From an uncultured Coriobacteriia bacterium (GTDB taxonomy: Bacteria; Actinomycetota; Coriobacteriia; Coriobacteriales; QAMH01), in the NCBI GenBank assembly GCA_949879855.1, contig CATLBX010000002.1:1448-65447 (forward strand): 64,000 bases of DNA, read 5' to 3'. Position 1 is the first letter of the stretch, and each line of letters starts with the position of its first letter. Position numbers and translations under genes: made by a program. This document shows positions 485 to 11,450 of this stretch, in pieces. The notes below the pieces were generated by a model, which worked only from the letters and a program-made list of their open reading frames with translations, did no database searches and had not been told where the DNA came from.

Positions 485-1114
485 TTACTTGCCGCCCAGC
501 GGGATGAACATCGTGTCTTCGGAACCATCCCACTTCTCGCGGGCCCCGATAATCGCATCATGGAGGTTCTTCGCACGCGGCTCGACGAACTGCACGGCAA
601 AGCCAATGTCCTTGCGCATATCGGCGACCATGAACGACGGCTTGCCTGCGTTAGCGCGCACCATCGCCTCATCGGCCCCTGTCGCACGCGCCTTTTCGAG
701 CGCGTTCTCGAGGTCGGGATAGCCCACGGTGATAACGTCGATGCCAAGGAAGTCGCAGGCGTCCTGCGCTTCTGCCAGGCTATCCACGAAGATGTGGATG
801 TGATTGAGGCCGGGCTCGTCTTCCTTGTTGAGTTCGGTGAACATCGTAGGTACCGACCAGTCGTTTTGCGAGACAACCTCGATGGAGTGACTGCCCCACG
901 CGCCATAGCAGGCATGGAACTCAAGGCCCTTGCAGTCGACTTCCTCGCCATGATAGAGCAGCTTGCCGAAGGTGTTGGTCGTGTAGAAGAACGGGCCGGA
1001 CCCAAAGAGCCTATTGTGGGCGGTCATGAAGCCGCGCCAATCGGGGGCGGAGAAACCGAGCATATGCACCCAGTCCTTGCCTTTGAAGTAATCGGAATAG
1101 TCTTTCACGCTCAT
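485..1114 (-). CDS. VOC/glyoxalase-family (methylmalonyl-CoA epimerase-like) protein
   Basis: HMLGF...FGSGPF...IEVV...GLNHIHIFVDSL pattern; start MSVKDY follows an AAAGG RBS. Confidence 0.7.
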   Translation of the reverse strand: MSVKDYSDYFKGKDWVHMLGFSAPDWRGFMTAHNRLFGSGPFFYTTNTFGKLLYHGEEVDCKGLEFHACYGAWGSHSIEVVSQNDWSVPTMFTELNKEDEPGLNHIHIFVDSLAEAQDACDFLGIDVITVGYPDLENALEKARATGADEAMVRANAGKPSFMVADMRKDIGFAVQFVEPRAKNLHDAIIGAREKWDGSEDTMFIPLGGK

Positions 1115-1167
1115 GGTTCTGCCTTTCGTTTTAAGCGGAGCGCCTTGCGCCCCGTGAAATGCGTTCA

Positions 1168-1998
1168 CTAGTCGAGCTGCTTGGCCATGGTCATGCCGAA
1201 CTTGCCGCCGTCAAGAATGAGGTCGACGCCAGTCAGGTACTCAAGTCCCGGCTCGAGCAGGCGCACGATGAACTCGGCCATCTCGTCGGGATCGCCCAGG
1301 CGCCCGAAGGCCGTGCCGCGTTCGATACCGGCAACCATCTCATCGGATGCCTCGCGCAGCATGGGCGTGTCGAACGCACCGGGCGCGATGGAGAAGATGC
1401 GGCAGCCCTTCTCCCCAAAGCGCTTGGTGTTCGCACGCGTGTAGTACTGCGTGAAGGTCTTGGAGATGGGGTAGTACTGGTAGTCCTCGCCCATGGCCCG
1501 CATGGCTTCGGGCACCTCGCGCGCATCGATGGCAGCCTTTACCTTCTCGAAGAACTCGGGGTCGTTGGGCTCGTCCCAGATTGCTCGCTCCTCGGGTGTG
1601 GGCTGCACAAAATAACCCGTGATGGACGAATAGTTCACGAGCGCCGCGCCATCCTCGAGATACGGAAGGAACGCCTCAACGAAGTTGATTGTGCCCACCA
1701 TGTTGATCTTGACGATGAGGTCGCCACCGCCGGCATCGACGCCCGCCGCGTTCACCACGTTGCCCAGAGGAGCAATCGACACCGCATAGGCCGCGAACTC
1801 GTCGAGCGAGGCACGGTCGGCGATGTCGACCGCCTTTCCGTAGGCCTCGATACCCTCGCTTTCGAGCTCGGCAACAGCATCGGCGAGGCGCCTTTCATTG
1901 CGGCCTCCCACGAGCACGGGGCCGAACTTTCCGAGCGCTTTGGCGGTCGCAAGGCCCATGCCCGACGTTCCGCCTGTTACAACTTGCAATTTCTTCAT
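1168..1998 (-). CDS. Short-chain dehydrogenase/reductase
   Basis: VVTGGTSGMG, VNAAG, YPISK (YxxSK), SIAPGAFDTPM. Confidence 0.92.
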   Translation of the reverse strand: MKKLQVVTGGTSGMGLATAKALGKFGPVLVGGRNERRLADAVAELESEGIEAYGKAVDIADRASLDEFAAYAVSIAPLGNVVNAAGVDAGGGDLIVKINMVGTINFVEAFLPYLEDGAALVNYSSITGYFVQPTPEERAIWDEPNDPEFFEKVKAAIDAREVPEAMRAMGEDYQYYPISKTFTQYYTRANTKRFGEKGCRIFSIAPGAFDTPMLREASDEMVAGIERGTAFGRLGDPDEMAEFIVRLLEPGLEYLTGVDLILDGGKFGMTMAKQLD

Positions 1999-2063
1999 AT
2001 CGTTTCCCGTCCGCTCGGGCGGCCGCGCATAAGCACGGCCGCCTCATCGACTAAAGCTTGCCG

Positions 2064-3521
2064 CTAATCCGCGTCTGCCTCTGCCTCGGTGGGCTTCTTG
2101 AGCATGAAGGTGATGATGAACAGCACGATCCATGCGATGAGCGATACGATCATGCACAGGCGCATACCCGTTGCCGGGTCCATTGCCACGAGCAGCGTGA
2201 AGACTGCCATGCCGACGCCCGCACCAAGGTTCTGGCCAAGCTGGATGACCGAGTTGCCAAGCGTGCGCAGCTGGGCCTTGAGCATGATCTGCGGCGCGGC
2301 CGACTGCGTGACGGTCTGCTGGGAGTTGAAGAAGCCGGCCAAGAACGTGAGGATGTAGATGACCCACACGGGCACGCCGGGCACGAGGACAAGGACGAAC
2401 GCAAACATGATGAGCACACGCCATACGTTGCCGAAGGTCATGACCCACTTGGCCGTGTTCTGCTTGGCGATAATCTTGCCGAAGACGGGGCCGAGGAACA
2501 GGCCGAGGATTGCCATGAGCGACGTCGCAAGACCACCGGCAAGTGCAGGGCCGATAGCCTGCACGATGGGATCAGTCGCGAGCGTGCGCATGATGAAGCC
2601 GGGGATGAAGAACGAAATCGACATGGCTCCGAAGTTGTGCAGGAAGTTTGATCCCGCCAGGACGAGCGTGTTGCGATCCTTGATGGCGTTGAGCGGCACG
2701 ATGGCGTCATCCTTCTTCTTTGCGATGATGAAGATGAGGACGACGAGTGCGATTGCCGACACGACGAGCAGGCCCGTATTGAGCGGTGTGCCGAACCTCA
2801 CGTAATTGCTACCCATGGAAAGCGCGATGATGAGACAGCCGAGGAAGATGGTGATGACCACAGCGCCCGCAAAGTCGAATTTGCCGCCCTTGACCGCGAG
2901 AAAGGCGACCTCATCCTTCTTCACCTTGACGCCCATGAGAATGAGCACAGCACCCAGGGCCAAAAACGCGAAGAGGATGAAGCACCACACGCGCCAGCCA
3001 ATCTGGTCGATGACGAGACCGCCCAGGAAGGGACCGGCGAGCATGCCGACGGACATCATCGTGCCGACGAGGCCCAGGTACAGGCCCGCTTGCTTCTTAT
3101 CGTAGATATCGCGAATCATGGTGAAGCCGATGGCGAAGACGCCCGCGCTCACCAAGCCCCAGAAGACGTTGGCCGCAATGATGATGAACATGTTGGTCGC
3201 GATACCACGAATGAGGAGCACAAGCGCGCCAACGACGAGCGAGCCACCTGCCAGCAGGCGTTTTGCCGCTGGATTACGTGCGCCGATGAAACCGTAAATG
3301 GGCATGGCGCATACGCCGATGATGCCGCTGACGCCCTGCGCCAGTCCGTAGATGTCCATGCCTCCGATGTCGGCAGCTGCCGCGGGCAGCATGACCGAGT
3401 TGGTATTTGATACAAGCATGTTTGCGATAACGGCGAGGTACAAGCCTATGACCGTCATCATCTTCTTTGCATTGGGAGCGTCCAGAAACGGGTTCCTCGG
3501 CTCCTCCTTGACCTGATCCAT
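2064..3521 (-). CDS. MFS transporter (DHA2-like, about 14 TM)
   Basis: Many hydrophobic segments; GPFLGGLVIDQIGWRVWCF motif. Confidence 0.88.
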   Translation of the reverse strand: MDQVKEEPRNPFLDAPNAKKMMTVIGLYLAVIANMLVSNTNSVMLPAAAADIGGMDIYGLAQGVSGIIGVCAMPIYGFIGARNPAAKRLLAGGSLVVGALVLLIRGIATNMFIIIAANVFWGLVSAGVFAIGFTMIRDIYDKKQAGLYLGLVGTMMSVGMLAGPFLGGLVIDQIGWRVWCFILFAFLALGAVLILMGVKVKKDEVAFLAVKGGKFDFAGAVVITIFLGCLIIALSMGSNYVRFGTPLNTGLLVVSAIALVVLIFIIAKKKDDAIVPLNAIKDRNTLVLAGSNFLHNFGAMSISFFIPGFIMRTLATDPIVQAIGPALAGGLATSLMAILGLFLGPVFGKIIAKQNTAKWVMTFGNVWRVLIMFAFVLVLVPGVPVWVIYILTFLAGFFNSQQTVTQSAAPQIMLKAQLRTLGNSVIQLGQNLGAGVGMAVFTLLVAMDPATGMRLCMIVSLIAWIVLFIITFMLKKPTEAEADAD

Positions 3522-3560
3522 CAGGTTCTCCCTCCTTTTGTTCCCTATATTCCTGCTTCG

Positions 3561-4340
3561 CTAACAGAGCTCACCGCCATCGACCACGAGATGCTGACCG
3601 GTCATGAAGCTCGATGCGTCGGACGCGAGGTAAAGCACCGCGTTGGCGCAGTCGGACACCTTGCCAGTACGACCCAGGGGAATCTTCGCCAGGACGCCAG
3701 GCGCGATCTTCTGGAAGATGTCGTCGGAGCCTTCCGGATGGGTCATGTCGGTCTCGATGAATCCGGGATACAGCGTGTTCATGCGCACGCCCTCGGGTGC
3801 CAGCAGCTTGCCGATGCAGGGCGTAAGCGCGCGGATGGCGCCCTTGGTGGCCGTGTAGGCCACGGACCCGGCTGCCTTCCAGGCGGCAAGAGATGCCACG
3901 GGGATGATCGCGCCGACCTTGTTCTTGGCGCATTCCTGCCAGCCATACTTGATCATGAACATGACACCGTCGAGGTTGATGCCCAGGACCTTGCGCCAGT
4001 TGTCCGTATCGAATGCCGTGCTCAAGCCGCCCGAGAGGGACAGTCCCGAAATACCCGCCGAAAGCACCATGATGTCAAGACGCCCGAATCGCGCGACGCA
4101 GGCCTCGACGGCTGCCTTGCAGTCCTCCTCGCTGGAGACGTCCGTAACGCGATAGGCGGCCTCGCCGCCCGCTTCCTCGATCTCCTTCACTGCCGCAATG
4201 AGCTTGTCTTCGCGGCGCGCTGTGAGAAACACCTTGGCACCGTGCTCGGCGAGCACCTTGGCCGACTCGTTGCCGATACCATGAGAGCTGGCACCGGTAA
4301 TGAGCGCGACCCTCCCTGTAAGGTCAAATGGGTTGTCCAT
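3561..4340 (-). CDS. Short-chain dehydrogenase/reductase
   Basis: ALITGASSHGIG, YTATKGAI, RMNTLYPGFIETDM, SFMTGQHLVVDGG. Confidence 0.93.
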   Translation of the reverse strand: MDNPFDLTGRVALITGASSHGIGNESAKVLAEHGAKVFLTARREDKLIAAVKEIEEAGGEAAYRVTDVSSEEDCKAAVEACVARFGRLDIMVLSAGISGLSLSGGLSTAFDTDNWRKVLGINLDGVMFMIKYGWQECAKNKVGAIIPVASLAAWKAAGSVAYTATKGAIRALTPCIGKLLAPEGVRMNTLYPGFIETDMTHPEGSDDIFQKIAPGVLAKIPLGRTGKVSDCANAVLYLASDASSFMTGQHLVVDGGELC

Positions 4341-4382
4341 GATAACCCCTTTCTTCTTGAGCGTGTGAATTGGAATGACTCG

Positions 4383-4919
4383 CTACTTGCCTTGCATGAG
4401 CGCGGCCATGGGTAAGAGCGCCGGAGCCTCGGCAGGCGAGTTCTCGTGCACTGCCTTGATGCCCTGCCACAATTGCTCACTGGGCGTGTTGACCTCGATG
4501 TACTGGCCCAACTGCTCGCGTGCGTCCACGTAGGCGATTTGCAACCCTTGGCCCGAGGTGACGCGCATGGCAAGACTCATGCCCTGCTTCTCCATCTCCT
4601 CGACCGCTGCATCCACGTCATCGACCCAGATGCAGAAGTGATGCAGGCCAAAGCGCCCCATCTCGTGATAGGGGTCGGGACCGGCACTTTCGACCTCGAT
4701 GAGCTCGAGCTGAATATCGTTCATATGACCGAGCGCGGTGCGCATCTTGAGGTCGACATCCTCGCCACGTACCTTGCAGCTCTCGAGCGGATTGCTGCCC
4801 AGGTCCACAAAGGGACCCGCGCCGAGTGAGGAGCGCAGGAATTCCGCAGATTCCTCGATGCTTTCGACGTAGTAGCCGATCTGCTTGATTCCGTACTTGT
4901 CCAGAAGCTGTTCGTCCAT
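4383..4919 (-). CDS. VOC/glyoxalase-family protein
   Basis: QIGYYVESIEE...GAGPF...IQLELIE...GLHHFCIWVDD...YIEV. Confidence 0.85.
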   Translation of the reverse strand: MDEQLLDKYGIKQIGYYVESIEESAEFLRSSLGAGPFVDLGSNPLESCKVRGEDVDLKMRTALGHMNDIQLELIEVESAGPDPYHEMGRFGLHHFCIWVDDVDAAVEEMEKQGMSLAMRVTSGQGLQIAYVDAREQLGQYIEVNTPSEQLWQGIKAVHENSPAEAPALLPMAALMQGK

Positions 4920-5207
4920 ATTCCGAAACACCTCTTCCGTTCCCTCGCAAATATGCAGATGCGTCGATTTCCGCACGGATGGTCCAGCTCCCTTGAGCAG
5001 GAACGGACAATCGCGTGCGTCAAGAACTCCCCCATTTCGACATCTTCAAAGATGAAGGAGGCGCTCGGGGCGTTCAATTAACAATGATTCTGGATTGCGG
5101 ATGATGTTGCGGCATTCGGCATGGCTGAACCCGGAAGGGTTACAGACTGCCGTTACCTGCACCTGTATGGCACAGATGAAGCAGTCTGTTTCCAGACGCC
5201 ATGCAGG

Positions 5208-5777
5208 CTAGGATGACACGGGGAATGCTTGGAGCCAAAACTGTCGGGTCATCTCCTCATATAACCCGGCGAGCTCGTGGGGCGTATAGGGCATGCCGTC
5301 ACTCACCCATTTCTGCATGAGCATGGCCTGGGATGAGGCGAAGAAATAGGCGATGTAGTCTGTCTTTCTGCTATCGCCCGCCCACTCGTACTCGGCAAAG
5401 ATGTCGATGTTCAGATCGTAGATGGCGTGAGTCGCGATGCGAATGAACGTGTCATCCCTGCCCTTCAGGGGCTTGATGAGATTGCCGTAAAACGAGGCGG
5501 AGTCGTAGATCCTCTCGTAGACCTTCTCGTAGAAGAGCGTGTTCATGTCGAAGGCCTGTTCCCGCGTAAGCACCGCGTTGAGGTTTTCGATAGGCTCGAT
5601 GACGTCCTGCTTGAAAATCGAGGACAGCACGTCGTCCTTGTTCGCGAAGATGTTGTAGAAGGACTTGCGGGAAACGTGCGCGTTCTCGCAAATGTCCGAA
5701 ACGGTTATGCTCAGATAGGGCTTTTCCTCGACAAGTCCCTTCAGGCTGACCTCTATTGCGCTTTTTGCGTCCCCCAT
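5208..5777 (-). CDS. TetR/AcrR family regulator
   Basis: N-terminal HTH ITVSDICENAHVSRKSFYNIFANKDD; TetR_C_8-like C-terminus. Confidence 0.92.
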   Translation of the reverse strand: MGDAKSAIEVSLKGLVEEKPYLSITVSDICENAHVSRKSFYNIFANKDDVLSSIFKQDVIEPIENLNAVLTREQAFDMNTLFYEKVYERIYDSASFYGNLIKPLKGRDDTFIRIATHAIYDLNIDIFAEYEWAGDSRKTDYIAYFFASSQAMLMQKWVSDGMPYTPHELAGLYEEMTRQFWLQAFPVSS

Positions 5778-5954
5778 GACGCCTCCCCCTGGCTCGCCAC
5801 TCGCATTCCCTATGATACTAAATCGCGACGAATGTAGGCGTCATGATTGAGAACGATCGATGGGCAAATGCGGAATACGCTGCGACAACGCGACAATCCG
5901 GACACGCGCGAGGCGCATCCGGATCGTCGGTACTCTCTCTTTCGCGGCGCGCTG

Positions 5955-6467
5955 CTATCCGGCGGCTTTAAGCGACTCCTGCAGCCTGTCGCATCCGCAC
6001 GTGCATCCTTCGGGATGAAGCTCATGCTCCATGGCCGTCTCGGTTTCCACATCTACGAGCGTGATGTCGAAATTAAGGGCCTGATCCGCGAGCTCGTGAT
6101 TGCAGTCAAGCACGACCTCGTCGTCTCTTACCTCCACCACGCGAACGCGCACGACATCACCCTCAGGTGTCTGGATGCCGAGCATGGCTCCCACCGGCAG
6201 CACCTCGCCGTTAGGCAGCGACGTAGCCGGCATGGTAATAACCAGCCCCTCGTCACGCCAACCGTAGGCGCGATCGACGGGAATGTGGATACTGCGGGTC
6301 TCGCCCACGTTCATACCCATCACCGCCAACTCGAAGTCGGGAAGCATGACGCCACTGCCCACAACGAACTCGAGCGGCGATCCCTGTGCCTTCGTGCTCG
6401 CGAATTCGGTACCATCGGCAAGCTTGCCGCGGTATTCGACAACAACACGATCACCTTGGTTGACCAT
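5955..6467 (-). CDS. slyD: FKBP-type peptidyl-prolyl isomerase, SlyD-like
   Basis: VVVEYRGKLADG...PLEFVVGSG...LDCNHELADQALNFDI; short His/Cys tail HELHPEGCTCGC. Confidence 0.85.
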   Translation of the reverse strand: MVNQGDRVVVEYRGKLADGTEFASTKAQGSPLEFVVGSGVMLPDFELAVMGMNVGETRSIHIPVDRAYGWRDEGLVITMPATSLPNGEVLPVGAMLGIQTPEGDVVRVRVVEVRDDEVVLDCNHELADQALNFDITLVDVETETAMEHELHPEGCTCGCDRLQESLKAAG

Positions 6468-6705
6468 GCCGGCCTCCTTCCAAATACATGTTCACCCATT
6501 GACCATTGCGGCGCACGTAGAACGGCTTGAGAACGATGTGGCCGCCGTGCGAACCCGAAGCATGGCACGCGACGCATCCTTCGCTGACAGCGCCATCCAG
6601 AACGAAGATGTCGTTATCGATCTCGAAGTAGCAGTTGCCGTCGGAGCCAAGAAACGCGTGCGTTTCCTTGTCAATGCCGACAACTGGTATTTCGCCTCGT
6701 GCCAT
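6451..6705 (-). CDS. Small hypothetical protein (about 84 aa)
   Basis: AAAGGA RBS upstream; overlaps the slyD start; contains CVACH. Confidence 0.55.
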   Translation of the reverse strand: MARGEIPVVGIDKETHAFLGSDGNCYFEIDNDIFVLDGAVSEGCVACHASGSHGGHIVLKPFYVRRNGQWVNMYLEGGRHGQPR

Positions 6706-6773
6706 GCTCACGGCAATCCTTTCAACCAAGCATCGGGCCGCCGGCGTTTTGCCAGCGGCCCGATGCCCCAGAC

Positions 6774-7577
6774 TTACGCAAGCGGGATGTCGCCCAAGCC
6801 CTTGTCTTCCTCAAGCGTGCTCACTTCGAGAGCGGCCTTCTTTCCGCCTTTCTCGATCTCGACACGCCACTGAGCGTCCGGCAAGTCCTCGAGCCAGAAA
6901 TCGCCCCAGCTGTCGGTCGTCGCGGTGGCCGTGCCCTCGGCACAGGTCGCGGTAACCGTCGCGCCTTCGATGATTTCCTCGGCCTCCGGGTCATACACGG
7001 TGCCGGCAATGAACTTCTTGGGCAGCTTCGTGTAGTAGACGTGCGGGTCGGTCTTGTACTCGGGATGAAGCACTTCGCAACCCGTCAGGTCGAAGTCCTC
7101 GGCCTCGCCAAACTGGATGACATCGAGGTGGCAGTTATCCATGCAGCGAGGCGTGTGGATGGGCTGCTCGGGGTCATCGATCAGATGCGCGCAACCGGTG
7201 CACTTCTGCGGAATCTCCTTCTCCTCGTTCCAGTAGATGACGTGGTATGGGCACGCGTCCACAATCTGCTTCTGGCCCTTGGCCTTGACCGGATCGATGA
7301 TGACCAGACCGTCGTCGCGGCGATAGACCGCGTCGTCCTTGGCCGCCCTCATGCAGGGGGCGTTGCCGCAATGGTTGCACAGACGCGGCGTATAGCTCAC
7401 CTTGACGTGGGGCTTCTGACCGCGTTCCTTTTGCTCGACCTTCATCCAAAACTGACCGATTTCGGGCTGTGCCTCGGCATAGGGCATCCAGCAGTTGCCG
7501 CAATGCTCGTCTTTGCAACCGATCTGGCAGTTATGGCAACCGACACAACGGGCGGCGTCGATAACAAATACCTTCAT
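6774..7577 (-). CDS. 4Fe-4S beta subunit of a transhydroxylase-like Mo enzyme
   Basis: CVGCHNCQIGC, CNHCGNAPC, CPY, KCTGCAH...PRC; C-terminal carboxypeptidase-regulatory-like beta domain as in the pyrogallol transhydroxylase small subunit. Confidence 0.9.
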   Translation of the reverse strand: MKVFVIDAARCVGCHNCQIGCKDEHCGNCWMPYAEAQPEIGQFWMKVEQKERGQKPHVKVSYTPRLCNHCGNAPCMRAAKDDAVYRRDDGLVIIDPVKAKGQKQIVDACPYHVIYWNEEKEIPQKCTGCAHLIDDPEQPIHTPRCMDNCHLDVIQFGEAEDFDLTGCEVLHPEYKTDPHVYYTKLPKKFIAGTVYDPEAEEIIEGATVTATCAEGTATATTDSWGDFWLEDLPDAQWRVEIEKGGKKAALEVSTLEEDKGLGDIPLA

Positions 7578-7592
7578 AGTTTGACCTCTCTC

Positions 7593-10268
7593 CTACTTCT
7601 CGATGACCCAGGACTTGCGGTTGATGCCGATTGCCGGGTCGTAGTCGCGGGCGAATGCCTCGGGGTAATCGCGCTTCCAGCCCTCGTACTCCTCATCGGT
7701 GACCTTGGCGACCTCGGCCAGATAACCGGTGACTGCGAAGCCCTTGCAATGCTTGGAAACCTGGTTACCCGGGCAGATGAGGTTGATGGCACCGCCACGG
7801 TCCAGATGCGGGGCGATGGGATCAACGCGGCTGCCCTTGGCGATGACGACGCTGCGCTCGGCCACGCGCTCGGAGATGCGGGCACCCAAAAGCACCGTAC
7901 CGCGCTCGTTGAAGATCTTGACGATGTCGCCGTTCTTGATGCCGCGGGCCTCGGCGTCCTCGGGGGCAATCCACAGCGGCTCATAGAGGTAGCCGTCCTT
8001 GCCCTTCACCTTGCAGGTCTCGATCTCGCGGAACCACTTGATGTCGTCGCCTTGGACATGCACACGCCACTTGGCGGGATTGGCCGTGACCAACAGCGGG
8101 TACTTCTTGCAGCGCTCGCCCCAGAAGGTCTCATCGTGCGTCCAGCCTTCCTCGGCCGGGCCGCCAACGATCCACTTCGCCATCGGCTGGCGCTCCTTGT
8201 CGTCGGGGAAGTTGTCGGCCAGCGCCTGGGACCAGAACTCGATCTTGCCGGTAGGCGTGTCGAGCGGATACTGCTCGGGGTCCTCGTAGAAGTTGCGCAT
8301 GCCGGGGGCCATCTGCTCCCAGTTCTCCTCAAGCTTGGGGTAGTAGTAGCCCTTTTCCTTGTAGGTCTCCCAATCGATCTCCTCGACCAGACGCGAGCTC
8401 TGGAATGCCGTCTCGATCCACATGTCGTCGGTCATGCCCTTGTCGATGTCCTCGCGCACGCCGAAGCGCTCGCCGATGGTGCAGGCGATCTGGAAGTCGG
8501 ACAGCGACTCGCCCTGGTGCTCGATGGCAGGGGGCGTGAGACCCGCATGACGCACGGGAACCTGAGAGGAGGCGCCCATGTCGTCGTTGTCCTCGAGACA
8601 GGTGGTAACAGGAAGAACGAGGTCGGCAAACAGCGAGTCGTTCTCGAGCCACTGATGGTTGGTGATGAAGCACTCCACCTCATCCGTGCGAATGGCATCC
8701 TGGTAGTTGAAGCCGCCGTCCCAGCAGTTCATGTTGCAGGGCTTCTCCGACCACAGCAAGTGGATGCGGTTGACCTTCGGCGCCTCCGTGGGAATGGGCT
8801 TGCCGAAGCGCTCGGCCATCGCCTGCTCCATAGCAAGAGCAGCCTGGGGATTGCCGGGATAATTGAACTCCTGGAACTGCTCGCTCGTCTCAACGTAGAC
8901 GATGCAGGGGCTGCCCCACCACTTCGCCTTGCCGGTTTGCAGGGCCTCGGCAATCATCGTTCGCGGCAGCGACTGCGCACTCGGGAAGAACATGCGGCAC
9001 TGGATGGCCATGGTGAACGGAGCCGTCGTCGAGCGGGCAATCTTCTCCTTGGCCGTGACCTGCGCGCTCAGGTGATACTGCTGCACGCCCGGCTTGCCCA
9101 GGCCCTGCATGGCGAGCAGGTAGGCAGAGGTGCGGGCAGGCTCGTGGCTGTACGGCGTCTTGATAGAGCCCGAGCTGTAGTGTACGTGCGAGGTCGTCTT
9201 CTTGGCGACGTTGCGAGCGAAGGCCTTGATGGTCCAGGCGGGAACGCCGCAGCGCTCGGCTGCCCAGGCCGGCGTCTTGGGCTCGCCATCTTCCTTGCCC
9301 ATCACGTAGTCGACCATCTTGTCGAAGTGCACGGTGTGCGTCTCGACGTAGTCCTTGTCGTAGAGGTCCTCGGTCAGCCAGGTGTAGATGACGCCGAAGT
9401 GGAATGCGGCATCCGTGTTGGGCAGGATGGGAATCCACTTCATGGTGTGGCACACCGACGTGTAGTTGCAGAACGGATCGACGCAGACCATCTCCTTGCC
9501 GAGCTTCTCCCAATAGCCCATGACCTGCGAGAGGAACATGGACGCGTAGTTGGTGGTGAGCTCGTAGTCGCCCGCGTCGAAGACGAGCATCTCGGAGTGC
9601 TGGCAGATGTCGAGCAGCACGTTCCACGAGTTGTAGCCTGTCTCTTGCGGAGCCACGAGACCGAGGCCCTTGTTGGCACCAGCGCCCCAGACGTGCTTGG
9701 CGCCCCAGTACCAGCCCTCAACGGAGTCCGGCGTACGCGTTTCGCGGGTGTAGCCGCCGAGCTTGTCCATGAGGGTCGCATGCATGCCGCCGCCGGCGTG
9801 CAGGTCCTTGGACTCACGGTGGCCGTCCTCGCCGATGCAGATGACCGAATAGGGGCCATAGGTGTCGATGACGCGACGAAGCTCGGACTCGACGATGTCG
9901 AGTGCTTCGTCCCAGCTAATCTCGACGAACTTCGACTTGCCGCGATTGGCGGAATTCATCTTGGCGGGATCTCCGCCCGGCTCCCAGTCAACGCGCTTAA
10001 GCGGCTTGAGTACGCGGTTCTTCGAATAGACGCGGTTCTTGTAGGCCAGTGCCATCCAGTTGGGGCACGTTTTGATGGTGGGCTCGAACACCTTGCCATC
10101 GACCTCGATCTTCCACATCGAGGGTGCCAGCTCCTCCTTGGTGTAGGCGGTGTCGTTCCTGAACGGGCGGATACGCACGATCTTGCCGTCCATGGTATCG
10201 ACCGCCGTTATCTCACCGCCCGTGCCACCACACGCGATGCTCTGGAGCGTAGTCTTGATCTCCTTCAT
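7593..10268 (-). CDS. Molybdopterin (bis-PGD) oxidoreductase alpha subunit, pyrogallol transhydroxylase-like
   Basis: EISWDEALD, TPDSVEGWYWG (Ser ligand motif; transhydroxylase has PDSWEGWHWG), FADLVLP, molydop-binding C-terminus; no Tat signal and no N-terminal FeS. Confidence 0.9.
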   Translation of the reverse strand: MKEIKTTLQSIACGGTGGEITAVDTMDGKIVRIRPFRNDTAYTKEELAPSMWKIEVDGKVFEPTIKTCPNWMALAYKNRVYSKNRVLKPLKRVDWEPGGDPAKMNSANRGKSKFVEISWDEALDIVESELRRVIDTYGPYSVICIGEDGHRESKDLHAGGGMHATLMDKLGGYTRETRTPDSVEGWYWGAKHVWGAGANKGLGLVAPQETGYNSWNVLLDICQHSEMLVFDAGDYELTTNYASMFLSQVMGYWEKLGKEMVCVDPFCNYTSVCHTMKWIPILPNTDAAFHFGVIYTWLTEDLYDKDYVETHTVHFDKMVDYVMGKEDGEPKTPAWAAERCGVPAWTIKAFARNVAKKTTSHVHYSSGSIKTPYSHEPARTSAYLLAMQGLGKPGVQQYHLSAQVTAKEKIARSTTAPFTMAIQCRMFFPSAQSLPRTMIAEALQTGKAKWWGSPCIVYVETSEQFQEFNYPGNPQAALAMEQAMAERFGKPIPTEAPKVNRIHLLWSEKPCNMNCWDGGFNYQDAIRTDEVECFITNHQWLENDSLFADLVLPVTTCLEDNDDMGASSQVPVRHAGLTPPAIEHQGESLSDFQIACTIGERFGVREDIDKGMTDDMWIETAFQSSRLVEEIDWETYKEKGYYYPKLEENWEQMAPGMRNFYEDPEQYPLDTPTGKIEFWSQALADNFPDDKERQPMAKWIVGGPAEEGWTHDETFWGERCKKYPLLVTANPAKWRVHVQGDDIKWFREIETCKVKGKDGYLYEPLWIAPEDAEARGIKNGDIVKIFNERGTVLLGARISERVAERSVVIAKGSRVDPIAPHLDRGGAINLICPGNQVSKHCKGFAVTGYLAEVAKVTDEEYEGWKRDYPEAFARDYDPAIGINRKSWVIEK

Positions 10269-10502
10269 TGCTCTCCCTTCCCTTTCGTCTCGTGAGCGGA
10301 CACGTGCGTGGGGGAGTTCGCACATGCCTGTCCACCTTCGATTTCATCTTGCGGAAAGGAGAAAACGGCATCAATTATCAAGCGATGCCTTTCGACGCCG
10401 ATGCAAGGCGGCACCTGCGTTCTGTGCAGAAGCAGGTAACAAATTGGGTGATGTGTGAAGCGAGGCTAGTGCCTGTCGTTAGGTGGGTGGGGTTTTCGCT
10501 GT

Positions 10503-10521
10503 ATGTTATACTTTATAACAT
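10503..10521. promoter_or_regulatory. Palindromic operator overlapping a probable -10 of vapBC
   Basis: ATGTTATA-CTT-TATAACAT, 20 nt upstream of the antitoxin ATG. Confidence 0.6.
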
Positions 10522-10540
10522 AGTACGGATGGAGGTCGTC

Positions 10541-10780
10541 ATGCCCCAGCTTTCGCTCTACCTCACCGACGATGCGGCAAGCATCCTACGCGAAGACGCA
10601 AAGCGTTCCGAACAATCTGTGTCCCGCTATGTCTCCGGCTTGGTCATCGATCGACACAATCACGCCTCTGCCTGGCCGGACGGATACTGGGAGTCTGTCT
10701 ACGGCTCCCTGAAAGACCCGTCGTTCACGGTCCCGCCCGAGCTTGACCCCGCGCTCGATGGCCCGCTCCCCGAGTTCTAG
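10541..10780 (+). CDS. vapB: VapB-like antitoxin (RHH-like N-terminus)
   Basis: GGAGG RBS; MPQLSLYLTDD...SVSRYV; acidic tail; directly upstream of a PIN toxin. Confidence 0.75.
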   Translation: MPQLSLYLTDDAASILREDAKRSEQSVSRYVSGLVIDRHNHASAWPDGYWESVYGSLKDPSFTVPPELDPALDGPLPEF

Positions 10781-10788
10781 GAGCGGCC

Positions 10789-11199
10789 GTGTTCTTTCTC
10801 GATTCCGACATCTGCATCAACCTGATGCGGGGCAAGTTGTCCACGACGTATGGCCACATCAGAAACAACAGCCCGGAAATCTTCGGGATACCAGCTGCCG
10901 TCGAGGCGGAGCTGCGCTGTGGTGCCGCGAAGAGCAACAACCCCGTCGAGAACCTACTACTGCTTGAGCGCTTCCTCGTGCCCTTCACGAGCGTTCCCTT
11001 CGACAGGCAATGCGCCATAGCCTATGGTCGCATCAGGGCAGACCTCGAGCAACGTGGCATGAAAATCGGCCCGAACGACCTCTTCATCGCCGCCACGGCA
11101 CTTGCCCATGGAGCCATTCTCGTCACGGGCAATGTGCGCGAGTTCGGACGTATCGACGGACTCGTCGCCGAGTCATGGGACGAAGTCGAACTAGACTAG
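10789..11199 (+). CDS. vapC: VapC PIN-domain toxin
   Basis: FLDSDICI, EAEL, IGPNDLFIAATA, LVTGNVREF. Confidence 0.93.
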   Translation: MFFLDSDICINLMRGKLSTTYGHIRNNSPEIFGIPAAVEAELRCGAAKSNNPVENLLLLERFLVPFTSVPFDRQCAIAYGRIRADLEQRGMKIGPNDLFIAATALAHGAILVTGNVREFGRIDGLVAESWDEVELD

Positions 11200-11379
11200 G
11201 CGCCTGTGGCGGATGCCCTCCTGTCAACATTTTTGGAAAATGGGGCGGCACAGGCACTGGCAAAAAACGCGGGATTGTGGCGCGTAGGCGAAGGTGCTCT
11301 GGCAAGGAATCGCGAGTTATGGCCCACTGGATGGGACGCAAGTGTGCGAATTATGCCAATTGCGACAAAGACCGCGCAG

Positions 11380-11404
11380 TTGTGGCGCGTTGGACGCGCC
11401 ACAA
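11380..11404. repeat. 25-bp palindrome TTGTGGC-N11-GCCACAA between convergent genes
   Basis: TTGTGGCGCGT-TGG-ACGCGCCACAA; left arm repeated at 11275-11285. Confidence 0.6.
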
Positions 11405-11450
11405 ACACATGATGCTTGCCAAGGGCGGGGATGACCTCTAGTTGCTGCCT

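Follow-up and report, generated by a model that had tools for sequence, protein, structure and literature searches.

The closest described relative of the system reported here is the pyrogallol-phloroglucinol transhydroxylase (TH) of Pelobacter acidigallici (AthL/BthL, equivalent to PgtL; Protein Data Bank (PDB) entry 4v4c), a cytoplasmic molybdoenzyme composed of an alpha and a beta subunit. It belongs to the RhL/PgtL family, whose members are cytoplasmic two-subunit enzymes with a Ser ligand that act on meta-dihydroxybenzenes; RhL and DbhL are the only other characterised members (PMC10100899). These two, the resorcinol hydroxylase RhLS of Azoarcus (Aromatoleum) anaerobium and the 3,5-dihydroxybenzoate hydroxylase DbhLS of Thauera aromatica AR-1, are likened to our enzyme by description. 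In nitrate reducers, the next enzyme of their pathways is hydroxyhydroquinone dehydrogenase; nothing of the kind is seen at the locus described here. This locus lies in a 64-kb window (the whole stretch of DNA analysed, 64,000 nucleotides of contig CATLBX010000002.1 from an uncultured Coriobacteriia bacterium), where ten minus-strand genes at positions 485–10268 form a co-oriented cluster around a TH-like alpha-beta pair, all of them present as an original prediction made from the DNA letters had described. While cupin, FMN reductase and UbiD/LpdBCD gallate decarboxylase genes accompany TH, the partners here are VOC proteins, a SlyD protein, short-chain reductases (SDRs), an MFS transporter and a TetR regulator. 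At the genuine TH locus of a P. acidigallici-type genome (our locus L068:9098-22628), a cupin gene precedes TH, and genes for an FMN-reductase-like protein, TauE, a CoA transferase, a LigAB-like protein and the UbiD/LpdD/LpdB gallate decarboxylase follow it, with no VOC, SDR or SlyD gene at that locus.

Coriobacteriia are known for polyphenol conversions (PMC7028382, PMC11887054), and two of their described systems resemble parts of the cluster. The catechol dehydroxylases of Eggerthella and Gordonibacter (Dadh, Cldh, Hcdh and Eadh1-3) are likewise molybdenum enzymes with a bis(pyranopterin guanine dinucleotide) cofactor (Mo-bisPGD) from gut Coriobacteriia; they act on polyphenols, are induced by their substrates and are often encoded beside MFS genes. 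However, they are exported, respiratory-like and controlled by LuxR-type membrane regulators, whereas the present enzyme is cytoplasmic and accompanied by TetR or a two-component system. The original prediction had placed the Eggerthellaceae dehydroxylases in the TH clade; these are in fact relatives of acetylene hydratase and form a clade of their own (PMC7028382). In the equol pathway of Coriobacteriia, an NAD(P)H-dependent SDR (dihydrodaidzein reductase) and dihydrodaidzein racemase reduce and epimerise an enolisable polyphenol ketone (PMC8618169). By description, this pair resembles the SDR and VOC proteins of our cluster, although equol clusters contain no molybdoenzyme. The racemase we take to be a VOC protein resembling methylmalonyl-CoA epimerase (MMCE). 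In the literature that we searched on Coriobacteriia molybdoenzymes, TH (AthL) appears only as an outgroup, and we found no characterisation of the clade defined below.

The alpha subunit, the Mo-bisPGD catalytic protein (891 aa; 7593–10268, minus strand; Pfam Molybdopterin and Molydop_binding), starts at an ATG at position 10268, preceded by a GGGAGAG ribosome-binding site. Its N-terminus, MKEIKTTLQSIACGG, has neither a twin-arginine (Tat) motif nor a Cys cluster, which bears out the predicted lack of a Tat signal and of an N-terminal iron-sulfur (FeS) motif, features shared with TH, as is the absence of an FS0 cluster. In a PDB search, the TH large subunit 4v4c_A is the closest solved relative (E = 1.6e-92; 30% identity), followed by trimethylamine-N-oxide (TMAO) and dimethyl sulfoxide (DMSO) reductases. 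The beta subunit (6774–7577, minus strand; Pfam Fer4_11 and CarboxypepD_reg), a ferredoxin module, has the TH small subunit 4v4c_B as its best match (E = 2.6e-59; 42% identity); its Cys motifs for three [4Fe-4S] clusters align with 4v4c_B with all ligands kept, and its C-terminal Ig-like (CarboxypepD_reg) domain is typical for TH beta. The resemblance of both subunits to TH noted in the original prediction is thus confirmed. Among the domain models, AhtL-like_1st scores alpha at 24.5, under its cut-off of 27, and the best NCBIfam models, bisC_fam, dmsA and torA, match far under cut-off (287 versus 1018 bits). Since NCBIfam contains no TH model and genuine TH draws identical sub-threshold bisC/torA matches, the name 'trimethylamine-N-oxide reductase' that JGI gives to several alpha homologues is an over-annotation.

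To place alpha among molybdoenzymes, we used a library-wide HMMER search (E <= 1e-30), which gave 374 cluster representatives, and built trees with FastTree and IQ-TREE, checking the identity of the outgroup with NCBIfam. TH and the family of alpha form a superclade with a support of 100 (FastTree) and 99 (IQ-TREE), from which BisC/TorA/DmsA-type enzymes are separated with a support of 99–100. On phylogenetic grounds, alpha therefore belongs to the RhL/PgtL (TH/resorcinol-hydroxylase) branch of the DMSO-reductase (MopB) superfamily and not to the S- or N-oxide reductases, a branch assignment that the original prediction had made and that both trees support; grouping with a characterised non-aromatic clade, which would have contradicted it, was not observed. 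Within the superclade, the TH clade (support 99) and the family of alpha (support 100) are distinct branches, and by this topology alpha is not a TH orthologue. Its family, which includes a paralogue from the same genome on contig C32, sits in a second radiation of uncharacterised clades (23 rows in the IQ-TREE analysis), most of which carry Tat signals and Thr/Val-rich linkers.

Comparison of the active sites shows a preserved catalytic core inside a rebuilt substrate pocket. Using parts of the TH sequence from the PDB search, we recovered full-length TH (P0278, 875 aa) and 119 relatives, and brought 50 TH-clade and 52 alpha-family sequences into one alignment; P0278 was also used to map Tyr404, the 50%-cluster representative of TH being a frameshifted fragment. 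His144, Asp174, Ser175 and Glu177 (TH numbering) are kept in 50/50 TH-clade and 52/52 family sequences, corresponding in alpha to His150, Asp181, the Mo ligand Ser182 and Glu184. The predicted motif PDSVEGWYWG is found as TPDSVEGWYWG, containing the D-S-x-E-G-W signature of TH with Ser182 aligned to the TH ligand Ser175. By contrast, nine pocket positions conserved in the TH clade are replaced or deleted in all 52 family members: His145 is Arg (Lys in two members), Gly148 is Lys, Tyr152 is Ala or Ser, Arg153 is Gly, Trp176 is Val, Trp354 is Ser and Phe468 is Ile, while Tyr404, part of an FPGY motif in 50/50 TH-clade sequences, is deleted and Tyr560 falls in a deletion. The new pocket residues of alpha include Arg151, Lys154, Val183, Ser365 and Ile456. 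The contrast between EDGHRES and SSHHMWG that the original prediction had drawn is real, GEDGHRES of alpha aligning with SSHHMWG of TH. The central ~100 residues of alpha could not be aligned to TH with HMMER, using either a single sequence or a profile.

Messerschmidt et al. in 2004 reportedly identified His144, Asp174 and Tyr404 as catalytic in TH, and aromatic residues of the enzyme are said in the same work to bind pyrogallol and the tetrahydroxybenzene co-substrate. Of these three residues, the His and the Asp are present in the alpha family and the position of Tyr404 is deleted (52/52). Since seven of the nine changes are invariant across the 52 members and two nearly so, they argue for a conserved, different specificity rather than decay. 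The TH-like architecture, the rebuilt but invariant pocket and the conserved partner genes described next are the part of this work that we hold with high confidence.

Searching one genome for each species turned up 67 loci, distributed over Gordonibacter, Adlercreutzia, Ellagibacter, Raoultibacter and numerous uncultured Coriobacteriia of human, mouse, chicken, goat, deer and rabbit gut origin; 34 of these species-level loci have enough flanking DNA for partner genes to be counted. Beta lies beside alpha in 34/34, and VOC1 and SlyD in 33/34 each, which makes these four the core module; a small protein is encoded in at least 17/34 loci (tblastn), thus in half of them or more. TetR is found in 23/34, which are all 23 of the loci with an alpha at least 70% identical to ours, and MFS (21/34), SDR1 (19/34), VOC2 (18/34) and SDR2 (13/34) are less frequent; the SDR-MFS-SDR-VOC2 block is an extension in one, closer subclade. 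All accessory genes were observed in the Ellagibacter MAG loci L052 and L056, and an alpha 72% identical to ours occurs in Ellagibacter isourolithinifaciens, which with Adlercreutzia sp. ZJ473, Gordonibacter faecis KGMB12511 and Gordonibacter sp. 28C is a candidate among cultured carriers. Recurring in dozens of species, the arrangement goes beyond chance. Paralogous alpha-beta pairs, 48–58% identical, likewise lie beside VOC and SDR genes (L007, L032 and L060). The distribution is patchy: even sampling of 151 genomes of the order gave 16 carriers, which fall into 8 of 62 genera, and related database proteins number more than 4,000 at E <= 1e-10, a count that extends past the clade of alpha. 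In a genome of the same genus (G016:C43:11-2338), a 94% identical alpha orthologue contains one in-frame TAG and may be a pseudogene or an assembly error.

The accessory proteins of the cluster are all encoded on the minus strand. VOC1 (178 aa from an ATG at 4919; 4383–4919; Pfam Glyoxalase_4, E = 1.2e-17) was modelled with a predicted local distance difference test (pLDDT) score of 93, and its nearest folds are the MMCE structures 3gm5, 6qh4 and 6bu2. Alignments place conserved Gln7, Glu66, His88 and Glu136, as putative ligands, at the four metal-ligand positions. VOC2 (209 aa; 485–1114) has no Pfam match, although profile-profile comparison with hhalign relates it to the VOC1 family (99.5%, E = 2e-22) as a divergent paralogue, bearing out the predicted identity of this last reading frame, and His17, Glu79, His105 and Gln175 are its putative ligands at the same positions. 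Both proteins thus combine the paired beta-alpha-beta-beta-beta VOC fold with the four metal-ligand positions of MMCE-like members. VOC2-like proteins in two Adlercreutzia species (L013:12347-13213 and L026:10151-11002) begin with a twin-arginine/lipoprotein-type signal, RRKFLAMG...AGC, indicating that an exported version of VOC2 exists. A small VOC protein encoded upstream of a Parasporobacterium TH homologue was considered as a relative of VOC1 and rejected as unrelated.

SDR1 (3561–4340; Pfam adh_short_C2, E = 1.5e-56) is a classical short-chain reductase with TGxxxGIG, a basic ARR of the NADPH type after strand 2, and YxxxK; generic ketoreductases are its top PDB matches, and no chain named phloroglucinol reductase (PGR) occurs in the best 60 of its 312 matches. 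The divergent SDR2 (1168–1998; Pfam adh_short, in two stretches) also has NADPH-type basic residues after strand 2 and an intact YxxxK, preceded by a ~40-aa insertion. Between them lies the MFS transporter (485 aa; 2064–3521; Pfam MFS_1), closest to the NCBIfam EmrB/DHA2 models and far under their cut-offs. The SlyD-type FKBP prolyl isomerase/chaperone (5955–6467; Pfam FKBP_C, E = 1.4e-19) carries a Cys/His tail, HELHPEGCTCGC, and matches NCBIfam SlyD-type models under their cut-offs. Overlapping the slyD start is the gene of the small all-beta protein (84 aa; 6451–6705), which has no Pfam or NCBIfam match; its homologues, which adjoin slyD in many loci, share the motif GSGSHxGHI and invariant His53, Gly55, Ile57, Gly68 and Trp70. 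A structure search with its confident model (pLDDT 84) found no match in the PDB. We also considered the small protein as a c-type cytochrome or CxxCH protein and rejected this, since the CxxCH cysteines are not conserved. No gene for an electron-transfer partner was found in the cluster with Pfam or NCBIfam.

The genes are separated by gaps of 15–68 nt inside both enzyme blocks, between which the TetR-family regulator is encoded (5208–5777, minus strand; Pfam TetR_N and TetR_C_8). A 9-mer, GTTACCTGC on the coding strand, occurs only twice in the window, once in each sub-operon promoter region: upstream of alpha at 10432–10440, as part of an ACCTGC-N13-GCAGGT inverted repeat, and upstream of VOC1 at 5152–5160, in the opposite orientation. 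This candidate TetR operator supports common control of both sub-operons, which are probably governed together by the TetR encoded between them, and it agrees with the 34-locus co-occurrence in linking the accessory genes to the molybdoenzyme, as the original prediction had proposed. Since the 9-mer is not conserved upstream of alpha in other species, its support for co-regulation is limited to this lineage. A promoter and terminator scan gave scores no better than shuffled sequence. In the subclade with 60–70% alpha identity, the place of TetR is taken by a GAF-domain histidine kinase with a response regulator of the NarL/LuxR type; such two-component regulators are seen in the L040-L058 group, for example at L049:8264-8959 and L058:3940-5106.

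The neighbours of the cluster are housekeeping genes, a DnaB gene upstream and purA and purD downstream, which marks it as a discrete accessory insert. Directly upstream of the cluster, between it and dnaB, a toxin-antitoxin-like pair with palindromes occupies 10503–11450. The genome (1.87 Mb, 91% complete) contains ~28 molybdopterin oxidoreductase genes, three of them for cytoplasmic TH-like enzymes, and genomes of this genus have 1–7 TH-like paralogues each. One further TH-like alpha-beta pair (56–58% identical; own contig C32:2299-8175) is followed by genes for a Zn-dependent alcohol dehydrogenase, an SDR and an MFS protein, and the genome thus holds a paralogous module with different reductases. 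The third TH-like alpha (~38–43% identical) is split over two contig ends (own contigs C12:1-3449 and C127:1-5018); together with its beta, it has two amidase-like genes and a further FeS-containing molybdoenzyme as neighbours. The known anaerobic gallate/phloroglucinol route uses dihydrophloroglucinol cyclohydrolase (DPGC), triacetate lyase (TAL) and a UbiD decarboxylase (PMC10470551), and PGR and TfD are further members of this pathway. No match to PF01977 (UbiD), PF04199 (cyclase-family DPGC) or PF05853 (BKACE TAL) was found in the 91%-complete genome, and we therefore rejected the canonical conversion of gallate through phloroglucinol to acetate for this organism.

Together, these observations lead us to propose, tentatively and at somewhat less than an even chance for the whole including its mechanism, that the cluster is a TetR-controlled cytoplasmic module, built on a distinct RhL/PgtL clade, that transforms an imported hydroxylated aromatic. 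Because the substrate pocket is rebuilt, the substrate should differ from that of TH, and pyrogallol handled in the TH manner is not what this enzyme converts. The new substrate expected in the original prediction is thus very likely, given a pocket that differs systematically from that of TH. Judging from family membership, an aromatic or phenolic substrate is slightly favoured; it is probably diet-derived, and the enzyme probably transforms a plant phenolic other than the substrate of TH. A redox-neutral reaction is favoured because the TH scaffold and core are kept in a cytoplasmic enzyme for which neither an electron-transfer partner nor a membrane anchor is encoded.

In the proposed mechanism, the Mo-Ser centre would move or exchange a ring hydroxyl on the imported phenolic, yielding a meta-hydroxylated ring whose keto tautomer could be reduced by SDR1 and SDR2 with NADPH. 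The VOC proteins might then stabilise an enolate through a bound divalent metal, promoting keto-enol isomerisation or epimerisation of the product; hydrolytic opening by these proteins appears less likely. This order of hydroxyl shift, reduction and isomerisation is possible but doubtful in its specifics, and its SDR and VOC step may echo the SDR-racemase pair that Coriobacteriia use in their equol pathway. The MFS protein would carry substrate or product, TetR would sense the compound, and SlyD with the small protein may fold or load alpha, replacing a chaperone of the TorD/NarJ type.

Several observations weigh against this proposal. None of the substrate-contact residues of TH is kept in the family, so that an aromatic substrate is deduced only from family membership; the possible polyphenol of the original prediction likewise draws solely on homology to two aromatic-acting enzymes. 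TH is the one characterised RhL/PgtL member placed in the trees, and the closest sister clades are uncharacterised and mostly Tat-exported. Among the best 60 of its 312 PDB matches, SDR1 shows no specific likeness to PGR, the MFS protein resembles efflux pumps, and no public RNA run was found with the window cluster or its Gordonibacter sp. 28C orthologue. No ring-cleavage enzyme of a known kind was found in the cluster or the genome, which, together with the missing DPGC, TAL and UbiD and the DHA2-like transporter, leaves the catabolic role that had been predicted for the cluster as a possibility only.

We considered four other explanations. A redox enzyme in the manner of resorcinol hydroxylase, adding a hydroxyl from water or reductively removing one from a non-catechol phenol, with a partner encoded elsewhere and electrons passing through the FeS clusters of beta, is unlikely but the most probable of the four. 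RhL is a cytoplasmic, Ser-ligated enzyme of the same family (PMC10100899), beta retains every Cys ligand of its three clusters, an enzyme that has no phenolic co-substrate could well do without Tyr404 and Tyr560, the TH co-substrate residues lost here, and Coriobacteriia are specialists in reductive dehydroxylation (PMC7028382). However, TH likewise keeps its FeS clusters without net redox, the 34 loci show no conserved electron donor or acceptor protein, and, in contrast to this cytoplasmic enzyme, the dehydroxylases known from these bacteria are exported and linked to the membrane. Another reading is a detoxification island, in which a TetR-repressed DHA2-type pump, VOC binding proteins of the bleomycin-resistance kind and reductases would neutralise a toxic quinone or phenolic and export it, with the molybdoenzyme as one detoxifying step. 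TetR and MFS are a classic resistance pair, EmrB/DHA2 efflux models are nearest to the MFS protein, and VOC proteins and NADPH reductases are common in quinone-detoxifying sets; yet the efflux matches are all far under NCBIfam cut-offs, the partners conserved with the molybdoenzyme are VOC1 and SlyD rather than the pump (21/34), and the full MMCE-like metal site and fold of VOC1 suit an enzyme, not a binding protein. We consider this explanation improbable.

A non-aromatic substrate, as for a cytoplasmic S- or N-oxide reductase, is very improbable: the JGI names and the bisC_fam, dmsA and torA models point that way, but these matches reach 287 of 1018 bits and are shared by genuine TH, and the tree sets the family apart from BisC/TorA/DmsA with a support of 99–100. 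BisC, TorA and DorA are moreover not known to require a beta-type subunit. Least probable of all, and barely credible to us, is a true pyrogallol-phloroglucinol transhydroxylase acting with a PGR from the SDR family and feeding the known anaerobic fermentation of gallate and pyrogallol. Although both subunits have TH as their closest solved relative, and PGR, the next known enzyme, is an NADPH-dependent SDR (PMC10470551) as the two NADPH-type SDRs of the cluster would allow, alpha is only 30% identical to TH and lies outside its clade (support 99–100), and His145, Tyr152, Arg153, Trp176, Trp354 and Phe468 are replaced and Tyr404 and Tyr560 deleted in 52/52 members. No chain named PGR is among the best 60 of the 312 PDB matches of SDR1, and the 91%-complete genome lacks DPGC, TAL and the UbiD gallate decarboxylase, whereas genuine TH adjoins UbiD/LpdD/LpdB.

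The proposed phenolic-transforming module could also be one instance of something larger. In a speculative and rather unlikely extension, gut Coriobacteriia would possess an unrecognised class of cytoplasmic molybdenum systems that move or remove hydroxyls on non-catechol rings of the resorcinol, pyrogallol or phloroglucinol type, obligatorily with MMCE-like VOC proteins and NADPH reductases, and one paralogue would account for an orphan polyphenol conversion. An example of such an orphan is the conversion of dihydroresveratrol to lunularin, for which the enzyme is listed as unassigned (PMC13515148).

Our analysis defines a large gut-associated clade whose active site is conserved yet different and whose partner proteins are fixed. 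To our knowledge, no more than two or three RhL/PgtL members have so far been characterised, and these come without exception from environmental anaerobes; studies of molybdoenzymes in gut Coriobacteriia have centred on exported, respiratory-like reductases, leaving this cytoplasmic clade aside. The clade offers a natural experiment on the retuning of the TH scaffold, and its constant association with SlyD may reveal a dedicated maturation route for a molybdoenzyme. If its members act on dietary phenolics, they would constitute a new enzymatic route in polyphenol metabolism and provide candidates for unassigned human metabotypes.

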